Shown here piece after piece: positions 3,352 through 13,000 of a DNA stretch of 64,000 nucleotides. This stretch comes from a virus (lineage: Duplodnaviria; Caudoviricetes). The notes under the pieces were generated by a model. The model ran no database searches and had not been told where the DNA came from. It saw only the letters and a list, made by a program, of their open reading frames with translations. The translations under genes were made by a program, and so were the position numbers. Within the stretch, counting starts at the first letter, position 1. Each line of letters opens with the position of its first letter. Location: positions 288,001 through 352,000 of IMG/VR virus record IMGVR_UViG_3300021255_002539, one strand, 5' to 3'.

Positions 3352-3929
3352 GTTGCTTTCTTCCTCCTGTTTTTTGTGTTCTTTTCTTCCTTCTTCCCAC
3401 GAAACTCCCATTGCGAAACCACAGTGTAGGATTTCGAGTTGGATTTCGTGCAAATCAATCCTGTCCCACAATCCCTGTCCACTGGGATGTAGCTTTTCGC
3501 CTCGTCCACTATCCAGGTCATTGTCTGGTCAGAGAACTTGATTCCGTACTTCGAGTGTGCGTATTCCACCCCAAGCATCGTAATCCACAGTTCGTATTGG
3601 TACTTGGATGTGTCGTTCCAAGCATAGCCCTCCACTTGCGACGGAACCCGCTTCGACAACACGCAATGCGAGAGTTCGTGGAAGAACGCAATCAACATGC
3701 TCTCTATGGGGTTGTCGCAGTTGGAGTGGATTCCGTGACCCTTGACCTTATCACCCATCTTCGCCTTCACGAATGGCGAGAGCATGATTGTGTTTCCAGT
3801 GGAGCCCCCGTAGTTGTAGCCACCCATTCCCTCGTTCGCCTTGAGGAATGTGAGCTTTACGCCCTCCTGCTTGGCAATTGAGCGCATCAACTTCTTGGTG
3901 GATTCCAATGTTCGGGTGTATGTCTTCAT
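3348..3929 (-). CDS. HExxH zincin-like metallopeptidase
   Basis: FFHELSH motif with a downstream Glu. Confidence 0.55.
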   Translation of the reverse strand: MKTYTRTLESTKKLMRSIAKQEGVKLTFLKANEGMGGYNYGGSTGNTIMLSPFVKAKMGDKVKGHGIHSNCDNPIESMLIAFFHELSHCVLSKRVPSQVEGYAWNDTSKYQYELWITMLGVEYAHSKYGIKFSDQTMTWIVDEAKSYIPVDRDCGTGLICTKSNSKSYTVVSQWEFRGKKEEKNTKNRRKKAT

Positions 3930-5355
3930 CAGGCCACCTTTCTGTACACTGGCTTGTGTCCGGGCTTGAGCGAGACCATCTTGCTTTTGCCGAGGTGGCG
4001 TTTGGGGATGTGTGACTCGCCCTTTGTGGTGGTATAGAGCAGTTCTGAACGGATGCCCAGTTCCAGGCAGAGTTCGTTCAGCTTAGTACGCTCCTTCACC
4101 TTGCTGTGTACGACCGTGATGTAGTTGCTTTGCTTCAGATTCACGAGCATCTTGCGCATCTCCTGCATGTCGATGTTCACGAGGGAGTCTATCACAATCT
4201 CCTTGTGGGGCTTCGTGGCGTATTCCTCCCCCATGTACTCGTATGAGAACCGCTCAGAGTTCACGATGTACATGTTCTGGTTCCTGCCATTGATCTTGCC
4301 ATTGGACACATCTCCCTTCTTGCCATTCCTCGGACCTTCCTTCCACAGGTTGGAGTTCTCGAAGTGGTGGGCCAGGGACTCGTGTGCAGTTCTGATGAAC
4401 ATCTTGTACCCCTTGTCAACATACATCTTGCACAGGGTCTCCAAGAACTTCGTGCCCAGACCCAGACCTTGGAAGTCGGGGAGTATGACCAGACGATGGA
4501 CTGCCTTGCTGAAGTTCAACGAGCCATTCGGATATGGGCGTATTGCGCAGAATCCAACATAGGCGTCGTTCCACTTCAAGACCCAACAATCTGCCGCCAG
4601 GAGAAGATCGTGGCTCAGATAGTGATACGGAGCGAATATCTTCCAGACCTCTCCCTTGCGCTCCGATTCAACTCGCTCGAAGGAGAGGTCGATGCTTTTC
4701 CCAGGCGGAACCCCCTGAGGTCATATACCTTTTCGGTGTTCAGGTCAACGAGGATGTCCGGCTTGAGCATGGGGATGATGTCGTAGTGGCATCCACAGAA
4801 GATGACATTCTTGAGCCCGTTCTTCCGGATGTACTTCTGAACGCTATGGCTGGCACTCATTGCGCACTCCCTGTTCACCACGCTCGTGTATTCGTCAATC
4901 ATGACCTTGGATTCGAGGTTGAGCGCGAGATCGGCCCGGAAACCCTCGCCAGTGGAGAGGACATTCCTGGGACGGCACCAATGGGGAATCGAGTTCAGCC
5001 CAACTGACTTGAGCTTGGACTTGCCTTTCTTGGGGTTGTCCGGGAAGTTCGATATGATTGCCTTGGAGTTGTCGTAGACCTTGTTGGGGAAATGCCAACC
5101 AGCCTTCTCGAACGCCTTGAGGAATGTGGACTTGCCAGCACCAGAGGGACCGACAATCTGGATGATGTTCACATCCAGGTTCAGAATCTCGTTGGGGATG
5201 ACGAAGGGGTATACCTTGGACTCCCCAGTGAACTCGTAATCGAATGCCTTCTTGATGAGGTTGATGCCCTCGTCAATCGGCACCTTGCTTACTTTTGGCT
5301 CGGTGCTTCGCTTCAACTCGCAAAGCACGGGCGCGTTCTCCCAGCTTTCACTCAT
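3929..5355 (-). CDS. ABC-type ATPase / Mom-like GNAT acetyltransferase fusion made by a -1 frameshift at 4696-4702 (about 475 aa; unshifted product ends at 4615)
   Basis: Walker A GPSGAGKST, LSTGE signature, IDEYTS. The -1 frame gives WKIFAPYHYL..VGFCAI..RLVILPDFQGLGLG (GNAT motif A). Confidence 0.85.
4646..4716 (-). promoter_or_regulatory. Programmed -1 ribosomal frameshift signal
   Basis: SD-like AGGGGG, 8 nt, slippery G GGA AAA, 5 nt, stem GACCTCTCC...GGAGAGGTC. Confidence 0.8.
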
Positions 5356-5617: not shown

Positions 5618-5653
5618 AGTATAGCATAATCAGGTGGTGAATGTCAATACCCC
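5618..5653 (-). promoter_or_regulatory. Class I (early, sigma70-type) promoter
   Basis: GGGGTA-TTGACA-N18-TATACT with extended -10 TG. Confidence 0.8.
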
Positions 5654-6657: not shown

Positions 6658-7539
6658 CTACGGGTGGTTACCCTTCAAGGTTTCGTCCAGGGAGTTCCAC
6701 ACCTCTGTCTTTTCGTATTCGTGCTTGTCCCCATTCCAGGACTTGTGTACAATGGAGAGTACATCCTCAGCAGCGAACAGCCTGTTGATCCTATGGTACT
6801 CCCACTTGTCGTAATAGATGGACTTGAGGTAGGTATATGCGGTCTTCACCACTGGGATATTGATTGGTTCTCCTGTTTTGTCAAGCGAAATCAAGTCGGG
6901 GTTGTAGCGATATATGATATAATCCAGTCTTCTGCTGTCGATATCCACCCTTACAGCCCGCTTGGATGGCCCGTCCACCTTCATTGTCTGCCAACCACAA
7001 TATGGAGAATTGGCGAGGTCGATTATCTTCTTCCAATCCGCAATCGTGGCGTCGTAGGTCTCAACTGACTTGTCGTCGGCCAACACCTTGTCCCGAATCT
7101 TCTCGTTGTATCGTTCAAGCAGTCGGTTCATCCACATTGGCACCTGCATATCCTCAGACACCTTGGCATTCGTCAGATTGCCATTCTTGTCCAGTTTCCC
7201 ATCCATCATGTAGATTGAGCGCAGAACCTTGTTCTTTTCGTGGACAACCGTAGCCCTCCTCCACAACTTGAAGCCATATTCCCATGTGCCATCGAAATGG
7301 TGGAGCTTCACGAACATCGGAATCCTGTCGTCCGAAAACGAATCCTTGAGTTGCTGGTACGTGGCGCACACATCCTCTATTTGGAGTTCCTCCAGTTCAC
7401 CATCGTCCTTGGACAGAACCATCGCATAGTCGTTGCTGGAATACTTGCCAGAGTGAATCGCCTCTCGTATGCTCTGCCAGAGACCGCAATTGGCAAGTTC
7501 CTTTGGCGTAATCTCCTCAACCCACTTCACTGCCTTCAT
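6658..7539 (-). CDS. Hypothetical protein; ends in TAG
   Basis: 293-aa ORF with phage-typical codon usage. Confidence 0.7.
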   Translation of the reverse strand: MKAVKWVEEITPKELANCGLWQSIREAIHSGKYSSNDYAMVLSKDDGELEELQIEDVCATYQQLKDSFSDDRIPMFVKLHHFDGTWEYGFKLWRRATVVHEKNKVLRSIYMMDGKLDKNGNLTNAKVSEDMQVPMWMNRLLERYNEKIRDKVLADDKSVETYDATIADWKKIIDLANSPYCGWQTMKVDGPSKRAVRVDIDSRRLDYIIYRYNPDLISLDKTGEPINIPVVKTAYTYLKSIYYDKWEYHRINRLFAAEDVLSIVHKSWNGDKHEYEKTEVWNSLDETLKGNHP

Positions 7540-10030: not shown

Positions 10031-13000
10031 TCAGAAATCGCCCAAATCGACAGCATCAGAATCTTGCATCTTCACCGTGTTGTCTGGGGCCATGGATGGC
10101 GCGTTCTGAATCACCATTGCGCTTCCTACTGGTATCTTGTTCACTTCCTCCACATACTCCTAGAGGTTTCCATGTAGTCCGACTGCCGTCTCCTTGACCT
10201 CGGTGAATGTCTTCTCTGAAATCTTGTCTCCACGTATCAAGGCCAGCTTCAACTCCCGTTCCTCCCTGGGCAGTTTTGCGATTCTGTTCTCTGCCTCTTG
10301 CTTGATGTTGTTCACATCGTCGCCCAGTGACTTCAAGTCCTCGTCAGTGACCTTCCCAGGATCCTCAATCAACTTGCCGAGTATAGTTTCGTAGTTCTGC
10401 TCCTGCTTTTTGATTGCCTCCGCCGCCTTGATCTTCGCTTCCGCTATTACCAATGCTTCCTTGCGCTTGGCTTCCTCCTTGAGTTTCCTCTCGCGTTCCT
10501 CCTTTGCCTTGCGCTCCTCCTCTGCTTTTCTTGCTGCCTCTTTTGCCTCCCTCTGGCGGCGTTCCTCCTCTAGCTCTGCCATCGTCTTTGGTGGTTCCAA
10601 TGGGGTGGCGTTGTCGGCAATCTGACCAGGTTTCTTGACAATCGACTGACCTTGCATCTGCGAGGATATTCGCTTCTTGCGCTCGTCTCCGAACGCCACC
10701 CACACCTTCTTGAGTTGGTCCAGGTATCTGATGTCGCCCGTGAACTTCGCCTCGTACTGTGCCTTTTGCATCAAGGGTTGCAGGAGGTCTATGTTCTTCT
10801 GCAGTTCGACATCTGTCATTTCAGACATCTTCCCCCACAGACCAAACCACGTCTTCAGTATGGTGTCCTTCTCCTTGTCGTTGGGAATTCCCAGGCTTTT
10901 TCTGTACTCATCGAGTTTCTTGCGTTGTTTAGAGTTCGCGTTCGAGTAGTCGATGAGCCTCAGTTCCATGTTCGGGAATCTGAGGTACTTCTTCATGAAT
11001 CCAAACAGAAGTGGGGGTCGGAACAGAATCAGGAGTTTGTTGATCGAATCGTCGAGTGCCTGTTTGGACTTCTTGTCCCTGTTCGTGATGAAGTTGCCCA
11101 GTGCGTCCTCCACCCTGTTCCACTGGGGGATTATCTTGAAGGAAATGTACTCCAGGAAGATTTGAGCGAAGGCCCTCTGGGATGGGAGGTCGTGGAACAT
11201 ATTCTTCCAATCGAACCCCCGTATGTTGACGAAGTTGAAGAAGTTCCATGCCAGGCTGGCCAGAGGGGTTGTCTGGATGTCGTCCCCAAAGTCCTTGTCG
11301 AATTTCTTGATTATCTTGTTCTTGACGAAGAACTCTATTATTGGGATGGCGACTTGGATGCTGTTGTGTATTTGGCCAGACGAGAACAGGTCCAGTACGC
11401 CTCCATCGAACATCAGGCTCCTGACATCGCCGTATCTTATCCCAAATGCGGTAATGTCCTTCACCTTCTGGAGGATCCGCATGGTCTCGTACATCCTCTT
11501 GGACTTCCTGGAGGCGGCCTTGGCCTTGTCCAGAATCCCATCCTCTGGCTTGGCGTCGTACTTGCTCAGGTTCTTGTCGTAGTTCAAGAACCGTTCGATG
11601 CCCGCCTGACCCTTCTGAACTGGCTTCTTGAATGCTGACGAGATTTTCGAGACGATGTTCTTGTTGATTTGAATGGAATCCTCGATGCCGAAGGCCAGTC
11701 CAAACTTGGTCTCAACCTGGGTGTTCGCGTTCTCAAGCGAGTTGTTTTCGTCGGTTATCTCGCCCTTTTGGAGTCTGGTGTAGAAGTCTGTGAACCTGTT
11801 CTTGAATATGACGTTCCGTTCAACATCGTACCCACCAACATCGTGGTCGGCCAGTGCAGAGTTCCATTGCTTCCATTGCACCGCATAGTCTGCTATGTCG
11901 AGTTCCTTGGACTTGGTTGGATCCCAGAAACTGGGCTTGCCCAGGTCCTTGCACACGTTTTCGTATATCTCCCTGATGGCCTTCGCCCTGGCCAGTTCGT
12001 ATAGAATTGGGTGCACAGATATCTTCGCCTTGTTCTGCATCCATGTGAATGGCAAGAACCCAGTTGATGTGGTCTCGGCCTCTGCTGGACTGCCGAAGTA
12101 TATGTCTGGGGTCTGGTGTATGGACTCGAATGGGTTCAGTGGTATTATCGTCCTCAAGTCGCTGGCCATCACCCGATATCCAGGGTTCCATCCACTCACT
12201 GGGTCGTACAACAGACCCTGGACATTCTTGAACCTCTGGGACTTGCTGAGTTCGGTTATGTAGATGTCGAGTGCTTGAATCTGTGGCTGGATCGTCTCGG
12301 CGATCTTCCTGGCCTTCAGTTCCTTCAACTTCCTGCCCCTCTCCCTGGCAGCCGCGAATGGGTTGTACAACAAGGGTTGGTTGGCCTTCCATTCGTCCAT
12401 GTGCTAGTCGAGTTCCTGGCTGATGGTTGTCATGTTGGCGTTCAACCTGGCCAGAAGGTCGTTTGTTCCCCTTTCCTTGAGCCTGTTCTCTGTCTCCTCC
12501 CTGGTCGTCTTCTCGTCTACGGCCTGCTCCTGAATCTCCTGCGCCTTGCTGAACGACTTGGAGTACCGCATGTCCACGCTTCGCATTATGGCTCCACGTG
12601 GGATTCCACCTTGGAGCGTGGACTTCGACTGACCCTTACCTGTCTATAGCCCTGGGATGTTCACCATCTGGTTCTTGAAGGTCTTCACGCCCCTGCCAGC
12701 CTTCTTCAGGGCAGCCATGTAGACATTTATCTGACCCTTGGAGTCAGCCATCATGTCCTGGACATTGTTCTGCATCGCCCTCTCTGCGTCTGCCTTCTTG
12801 TTGTTCCAGTGGAGCATCACTTGGGTCGAGATGAAGGTGATTATGGCTGGTATGAGCTTGACTATGAACGACAGTATTGGTCCGACCCCGGGGACAATGC
12901 TCAGAACCCAACCCAGAATCTTGGCCAGTACCCCACCAGCAGATTTCCTCACTACGCCAATCAACCATGCGCCAAACAGCTTCCTCATGGTGTTCCTGGT

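Follow-up and report, generated by a model that had tools for sequence, protein, structure and literature searches.

How one phage gene might yield two proteins from overlapping reading frames is the question raised by a locus on the minus strand of the stretch analyzed here (the window; 64,000 nt), which spans positions 288001-352000 of a complete phage genome (414,060 bp) with direct terminal repeats, a tmRNA, and a large tRNA cluster. The gene is single-copy in this genome, sits among small minus-strand genes behind a candidate promoter, and encodes an ABC-type ATPase in one frame and a GNAT domain in another. An earlier note, made from the sequence alone, had proposed that the two halves are fused by programmed -1 frameshifting. 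We followed this proposal computationally through a family of homologous loci.

Reading frames of the ATPase-GNAT gene

The candidate promoter and the two frames are as follows:

5618..5647, minus strand: sigma70-type promoter candidate (TTGACA, 18 nt, TG-TATACT; 11/12 consensus match, a pattern match only)
4615..5355, minus strand: 0-frame ORF encoding the short product, an ABC-type ATPase (246 aa, 27.6 kDa)
3929..4696, minus strand: -1 frame encoding the GNAT domain and a C-terminal domain, giving a fusion of 475 aa (220 + 255; 54.2 kDa)

The promoter candidate is upstream of a 69-aa ORF and the ATPase gene, which has an AAGGAG Shine-Dalgarno (SD) sequence at its start (5372-5367). The ATPase carries Walker A (residues 69-77), an LSTGE signature (133), Walker B (153), and an H-loop (189), and its frame ends at a TGA (4617-4615). 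A 26-aa tail ending in ITI closes the short product; structure prediction gave pLDDT <50 over residues 222-246, and a folded role for the tail was rejected on that basis. Bounded by a TGA at 4723, the -1 frame opens no earlier than 4720 and runs to a TGA at 3931-3929; the two frames overlap at 4720-4615. It holds the GNAT motifs W..F..(H/Y)HYL and HRLVILPDFQGLG, with WKIFAPYHYL at residues 238-247 of the 475-aa fusion, followed by a C-terminal domain of ~95 aa with no Pfam match. The coordinates thus confirm the earlier reading of a 0 frame that stops at 4615 and a -1 frame that supplies WKIFAPYHYL before continuing into the GNAT.

The shift had also been regarded as a second layer of recoding in the same genome, and genome-wide codon use agrees that TAG is a sense codon: coding-like codon use continues past TAG in 65% of cases, compared with 4% for TGA and 8% for TAA. 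TAG recoding does not explain the split gene, because neither frame of the locus contains TAG, and TAG readthrough was ruled out as its cause. Elsewhere, many long genes contain TAG codons read as sense (e.g., at minus-strand window positions 10162 and 6660). Were the TAG at 6660 read, its ORF would continue in frame into the 73-aa gene that follows, so some TAGs in the genome may still act as stops. ARAGORN found no CUA suppressor tRNA in the genome, relaxed score included; beside the tmRNA (genome positions 367853-367926), it called a tRNA whose two-letter anticodon is unassigned.

The -1 split recurs among homologs

Across 297 loci (redundant ones included), 203 were in frame and 89 were split by -1, while the other five comprised one +1 locus (containing N), one with an in-frame stop, and three without a readable GNAT. 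An in-phase heptamer or a G5 run was present at the joint in 59 of 62 non-redundant -1 loci (G_GGA_AAA, A_AAA_AAA, T_TTT_TTT, A_AAT_TTT, G_GGG_GAR, or similar), and 7 of 180 in-frame loci had a heptamer. The idea, put forward in the earlier note, that homologs might be split at the same joint on a conserved heptamer was thereby borne out. Most of the best ATPase homologs (106/120) end in L-(GK/KK/GE) followed by a tail closing with I(T/I)(I/T), the other-frame reading of the HHY motif of the -1 frame.

The earlier note would have taken close homologs that are in frame and lack the heptamer and stem as refuting a shift. Part of this was observed: close in-frame homologs lacking the heptamer or stem exist (P0273-P0281, L266, and L267), yet they do not refute the shift, because they confirm the fusion length and because the best 56 homologs (64%-96% identical) are all split. 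From the heptamer on, nine natural in-frame proteins (69%-73% identical, 471-482 aa) align to the -1 frame.

Two loci illustrate how family members have been annotated. In Tenacibaculum phage pT24 (L255:2366-3538), the joint is in frame, but the annotation divides the gene into two ORFs at a later break, within the GNAT. In Streptococcus prophage 315.4 (L258:2851-3920), a -1 split at G_GTT_TTT_C is annotated as an ABC transporter and a hypothetical protein.

The slippery heptamer and its 3' structure

The elements of the putative recoding site are listed below:

4716-4711, minus strand: SD-like AGGGGG, 8 nt before the heptamer, without synonymous constraint
4702-4696, minus strand: slippery heptamer G_GGA_AAA in X_XXY_YYZ phase, codons 219-220 (GGA AAA)
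4680..4690, minus strand: stem 1, 5' strand, its start separated from the heptamer by 5 nt (pairing in 97% of cells across 11 homologs)
4646..4657, minus strand: stem 1, 3' strand, with a 1-nt bulge
4659..4665, minus strand: stem 2, 5' strand CGGAGCG, within the stem 1 loop
4628..4634, minus strand: stem 2, 3' strand CGCTCCG, 11 nt past stem 1, closing the putative H-type pseudoknot

The in-phase GGGAAAA within the frame overlap, as originally described, held up in position, phase, and conservation. Among 11 close homologs, the heptamer shows no synonymous divergence (0), the stem zone 0.18, and the SD zone 0.42, compared with 0.43-0.49 in the remainder of the gene; in some close relatives, the heptamer is A_AAA_AAA. 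The G_GGA_AAA motif is described as inefficient in Escherichia coli, yet it is used by IS elements (PMC4066793). The genome holds 250 in-phase heptamers, 18 of which have the right geometry (a short 0 frame with a long -1 frame after), and the heptamer at this locus has by a wide margin the most stable 3' fold of the 18 (-23.0 kcal/mol; runner-up -15.3).

The SD upstream of the heptamer fared differently. AGGGGG is present where it had been placed, but a role as conserved -1 stimulator was rejected: its synonymous divergence is at background (0.42 vs 0.43-0.46), it is missing in three of the 11 homologs (L002, L251, and L252), and its 8-nt spacing falls slightly under the 9-14 nt given for -1-stimulating SDs (PMC5009743). 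The element may be a relic of the SD in the +1 cassette of in-frame relatives (described below), because in-frame L284 and L296 of the wider clade keep the cassette SD at the matching place (AGG GGG TTA CTT, where the window has AGG GGG TTC CGC).

The 3' stem stood in part. Its 9-bp core (4690-4682/4654-4646; 11 bp counting G-U) is present at a distance of 5 nt, within the 5-8 nt expected of -1 sites, and is conserved across the 11 homologs as 8 bp, a 1-nt bulge, and a further 3-4 bp. A simple hairpin, however, probably does not describe it, since the loop is predicted to pair with a conserved downstream GCTCC. All 11 homologs carry GGAG in the loop, and they do so in two different codon phases (background 14-nt windows have it in 6.5% of cases), whereas the two in-frame relatives compared lack it; GCTCC is invariant in 11/11, 9-15 nt past the stem. 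In the window, the H-type layout would comprise S1 of 11 bp, L1 of 14, S2 of 7 bp, L2 of 1, and L3 of 11. Stem 2 would form 5-9 bp in all 11 homologs with no compensatory change, and compared with synonymous shuffles, it reached P <0.05 in 3/11 (0.084 in the window), a per-sequence result that is weak partly because the fixed amino acids themselves carry GGAG. On this comparative evidence, we consider it reasonably likely that the 3' element is an H-type pseudoknot rather than a hairpin.

Covariation in this 3' structure is thin: stem 1 is mostly invariant, with one compensatory G-C to A-U change (44/500 shuffles scored equally high). The hairpin alone only modestly beats dinucleotide shuffles (z -2.0), and the case for frameshifting rests on conservation. 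Folding of the 3' region relative to synonymous shuffles gave a median z of -1.22 in -1 loci versus +0.07 in in-frame loci (P = 4e-9). Sister gut-phage loci have different stems of 12-14 bp at a spacing of 4-6 nt; the sister-clade stem, named by hand, showed 79% pairing and four pairs with two-sided changes (a -2 slide scored 69%), and RNAalifold did not recover it. By sequence comparison, the site appears to be a real and conserved instance of -1 frameshifting, a known kind of mechanism, and -1 shifting very probably occurs at the window locus.

In-frame homologs carry a putative +1 cassette

The HHY codons of in-frame genes are biased, being CAT CAC TAT even in GC-rich genes (TAT in 32/34 vs 10 expected), and the shadow frame of these homologs was tested for that reason. 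Over codons -20 to -1, the +1 frame of 122 in-frame loci contained 0 stops, where synonymous shuffles had ~64; the other frame over the same codons had 129 versus 151, and flanking bins were close to expected. Among representatives <55% identical, 0/29 had a shadow stop (mean of 11.3 and minimum of 5 over 1,000 shuffles).

At codon -24/-25, where -1 loci place the heptamer (starts mostly at -26), 88 of the 122 in-frame loci have an SD, 3 nt, and CTT-Y or GTT-Y, seven of the 88 being looser variants (1.9 expected; 2/1,220 in control windows). The cassette was present in 42 of 59 divergent representatives (<60% identity), and the signal spans seven named phyla, including Actinomycetota, Pseudomonadota, and Planctomycetota. 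Cultured in-frame members that carry it include Gordonia phages Jace (gene 86) and BiggityBass (gene 2). CTT is the Leu codon of the cassette in 77/78 cases (14 expected), and pairing with the anti-SD is strongest at a spacer of 2-3 nt; the SD spacing reported for +1 shifting is 3 nt (PMC5009743). A-site codons were CGG (31), CAA (25), AGG (6), CAT (6), and others, i.e., sense codons, with no UGA stop in the A site of the +1 cassettes. The tail of the predicted +1 product ends in an ITI-type triplet and a stop in 76/125 loci and is somewhat longer in the rest. This cassette, at the joint of the -1 loci, is new in this analysis.

The layout (SD, 3 nt, CUU-Y) is shared with E. coli prfB (RF2), some homologs having the same TAT spacer. 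In these homologs, the A site holds a sense codon and not the UGA stop that drives the prfB shift by release-factor sensing, and shifting would give a shorter protein where in prfB it completes one. The cassette would be prfB-like in its working but not RF2-autoregulatory, and the likeness applies to the in-frame homologs, not to the window gene.

Given these signals, +1 shifting at the in-frame cassettes is likely, and we hold this with good confidence. The main competing view accepts -1 shifting and takes the +1-type signal for a pausing element, or for a remnant of -1 ancestry, in genes that make the fusion only. The A site without a stop, the lack of the cassette in some in-frame loci, and a disordered tail that is poorly conserved save for ITI would all fit such a view. 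Nonetheless, a relic would not retain CTT, the SD at its spacer, and a stop-free +1 frame over seven phyla, and a pause element would not need an open +1 frame, so that we regard this view as unlikely. Close in-frame relatives L266 and L267 have neither a -1 nor a +1 cassette, and the short product can hence be dispensable or lost in some lineages.

Two further loci depart from the general pattern. L283 (1900-2000) is a -1 locus without a heptamer but with an SD, 3 nt, and CTC, possibly of +1 type with a 1-nt assembly loss. L096 (Nonomuraea; 4400-4460) has an in-frame TAG three codons upstream of a +1-type cassette, where relatives have GAG or GCC, and is probably a pseudogene or a sequencing error.

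Evolution of the putative frameshift polarity

The -1 loci form at least four groups with in-frame loci between them: gut/rumen phages, an aquatic T9 clade, Bacteroidota A-run loci, and a group with Streptococcus prophage 315.4. Monophyly of the -1 loci was rejected (p-AU 2e-30, in a test that left out L021, L022, L266, L283, and L205), and a single origin of the -1 state was rejected with it. L266 is an in-frame gene nested in the window phage's own clade. The family tree is unrooted, so it does not set the direction of change between states. Ribosomal frameshift direction has been observed as conserved among orthologs (PMC3711429). Based on the sequences, it is fairly probable that this family needs both subunits and has switched repeatedly between opposite ribosomal signals at one codon: a prfB-like +1 shift on a sense codon, truncating an in-frame gene, and a -1 shift with a hairpin or pseudoknot, extending a split gene.

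Two loci, L021 and L022, carry in-frame T10 runs, ~55 nt before the GNAT W codon, and are nested in the T9 -1 clade; the runs could be homopolymer miscalls, phase variants, or slippage-type alleles. Phase variation at the window locus was rejected, as it has no long homopolymer.

Transcriptional slippage, in which RNA polymerase would add one base in an A run and the ribosome would stay in frame, could draw on this nesting, on the 9-10-nt A or T runs used by other -1 clades, and on the treatment of both-direction families as slippage cases in PMC3711429. The window run is only G3A4, however; the phasing with codons, the 5-nt spacer, and the conservation of a 3' structure all point to the ribosome, and the +1 cassettes consist of SD/CUU signals rather than homopolymers. 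Slippage is thus quite improbable here, and a ribosomal frameshift is highly likely.

Two probable products from one gene

The GNAT had been described as having no good start of its own, and indeed the earliest ATG, GTG, or TTG of the -1 frame is TTG 4579, downstream of WKIFAPYHYL. The first GNAT strand and helix are encoded upstream of the 0-frame stop, and a confident model (pLDDT 91) of one in-frame relative places them before both that stop and TTG 4579. Reinitiation at the annotated start would consequently give a crippled GNAT. This bears on the possibility of two separate genes without a fusion, with the GNAT translated from TTG 4579 or a near-cognate start through coupling or reinitiation, as the annotation by gene callers and the presence of a 216-aa TTG ORF might suggest. 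Such a start would lose the W..F..HHYL motif together with the first strand and helix, is not conserved, and leaves the heptamer unexplained, which makes two genes a very improbable reading. An assembly indel or a pseudogene, for which the existence of in-frame close homologs could be cited, is scarcely credible: the same split and heptamer recur in independent assemblies of the 64%-96% identical relatives, the same split falls on a G5 run in the cultured Thomasclavelia phage TR-TP1, there are 89 -1 loci versus one +1 locus, and the GNAT is without stops. By sequence comparison, the split is judged to be genuine, with an assembly error excluded because it is conserved across these 89 of 297 loci.

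One gene with two proteins made by programmed -1 frameshifting is probably the best explanation as a whole, with a two-product output as a family trait. The sequence evidence supports the earlier view that an ATPase of ~246 aa and an ATPase-GNAT of ~475 aa would be the outputs. Most ribosomes would stay in the 0 frame as far as TGA 4615, yielding the 246-aa ABC ATPase with its disordered tail. A minority would be held up over GGA (P site) and AAA (A site) by the pseudoknot 5 nt downstream; their tRNAs would then re-pair on GGG and AAA, giving the 475-aa ATPase-GNAT. In-frame members would make the long form by default and the same short form via a prfB-like +1 shift at the homologous codon, on an SD, 3 nt, CUU/GUU-Y, and then mostly CGG or CAA.

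Known systems share parts of this arrangement. In IS3-family orfA/orfAB and phage lambda gpG/gpGT, an X_XXY_YYZ heptamer with a 3' structure leads to a longer fusion, as proposed here, although the window gene encodes no transposase or tail chaperone; G_GGA_AAA is found in IS elements, IS3 uses a pseudoknot (PMC4066793), and lambda gpG/gpGT have a set product ratio (PMC5009743). As proposed for the window gene, dnaX (tau/gamma) gives an ATPase-only short form and a long form, although the two proteins are unrelated. The -1 shift of E. coli dnaX leads to truncation, whereas the window shift would extend. Recoding of dnaX yields a short or long subunit by a ribosomal or transcriptional route, but a -1/+1 ribosomal swap among orthologs is not described (PMC3711429).

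Protein family and predicted function

Both halves of the gene match one 357-aa family, phrog_11143, and the features tested for that family were present (ABC nucleotide-binding domain motifs, then a GNAT with W..F..HHYL and HRxVVLPD(Y/F)QG). The JGI label is "ABC-type ATPase with predicted acetyltransferase domain." The same two domains in the same order make up the GNAT + ABC ATPase system, a family set apart from Mom and predicted to acylate DNA bases (PMC7824862, citing its authors' own earlier work), and a tblastn search matched Tenacibaculum phage pT24, which the paper names. The window fusion differs in needing a -1 shift and in having an additional C-terminal domain. The word "frameshift" does not occur in PMC7824862, and full-text searches, which did not extend to the 2013 DNA-base-modification and 2020 ABC ATPase classification papers, returned no paper on recoding in this family.

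The description of the GNAT as "Mom-like" was not upheld. Phage Mu Mom is likewise phage-encoded with a GNAT fold, but it has no ABC domain, and membership of the window GNAT in the Mom family was rejected: Pfam Mom (PF25680) gave no match at E 0.1 (Mu Mom itself matches at 2e-75), and hhalign to Mu Mom gave a probability of 0.2% (E 0.28), aligning a short HY-bearing stretch. Mom is a tRNA-dependent enzyme (PMC13219725). PADLOC and NCBIfam searches returned generic Walker A or GNAT matches only, and a PDB sequence search found no close GNAT. Fold searches recovered generic ABC and GNAT folds with no standout (best Z 14.9, rmsd 3.4, 136 aligned) and no Mom in the top 50.

Upstream of 40 of the ~220 non-redundant members lies a ParB-like gene, and downstream neighbors are often formyltransferase and terminase genes; none of the three adjoins the window gene. 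These neighbors fit a DNA-directed role across the family. That DNA is the acylation substrate, a prediction from the literature, is tentative, at somewhat under even odds. In the Mu-like Burkholderia phage phiE255 (L260:2723-4616), a small gene, the ABC-GNAT gene with a +1 cassette, and a formyltransferase gene lie just past the tail-fiber genes, about where Mu keeps com-mom. Formyltransferase neighbors occur at 15 loci, one in a Gordonia phage being annotated as a tRNA-methyltransferase. Five members (L163, L294, L295, L296, and P0282) have an insertion of at least ~125 aa in the ATPase past Walker B; P0282 has matches to Pfam PF05204 and PF14528, presumably intein or homing-endonuclease domains.

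Structure prediction shows the short form as an entire nucleotide-binding domain followed by a disordered tail. ABC domains function as dimers. Prediction of a short-plus-long complex, with a 70% identical relative as the long chain, scored 0.46 versus 0.00 for the best control, on a scale where scores ≤0.60 hold only 7/80 solved complexes and both passing mismatches and where ABC dimers are textbook pairs; runs agreed in at least 85% of contacts, with partner pLDDT of at least 78. The model lends weak support to such a complex, and we give co-assembly of the two forms an even chance. The best reading would be a mixed oligomer, of which -1 members would have an excess of ATPase subunits and +1 members a deficit. 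Recoding would likely serve to fix the proportion between ATPase-only and ATPase-acyltransferase subunits within a single oligomer, whose task would be to acylate a nucleic acid, most likely phage DNA.

The family looks like a counter-example to the conserved direction of frameshifting described in PMC3711429, with many natural variants, and it places -1 and +1 cassettes side by side at one site for reporter tests. It also offers a probable pseudoknot stimulator in a bacterial system and an SD-driven +1 site without a stop codon. Annotation would be corrected on both sides, as split genes currently miss the catalytic N-terminus of the GNAT and in-frame genes miss a product. If the two-product reading is true, hundreds of genes annotated as plain fusions hide a +1 product that is invisible to frame-break scans, and the product ratio of the +1 form may depend on the supply of CGG/CAA tRNAs. 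Tests of the predicted DNA-acylation activity would then need both forms to be co-expressed.
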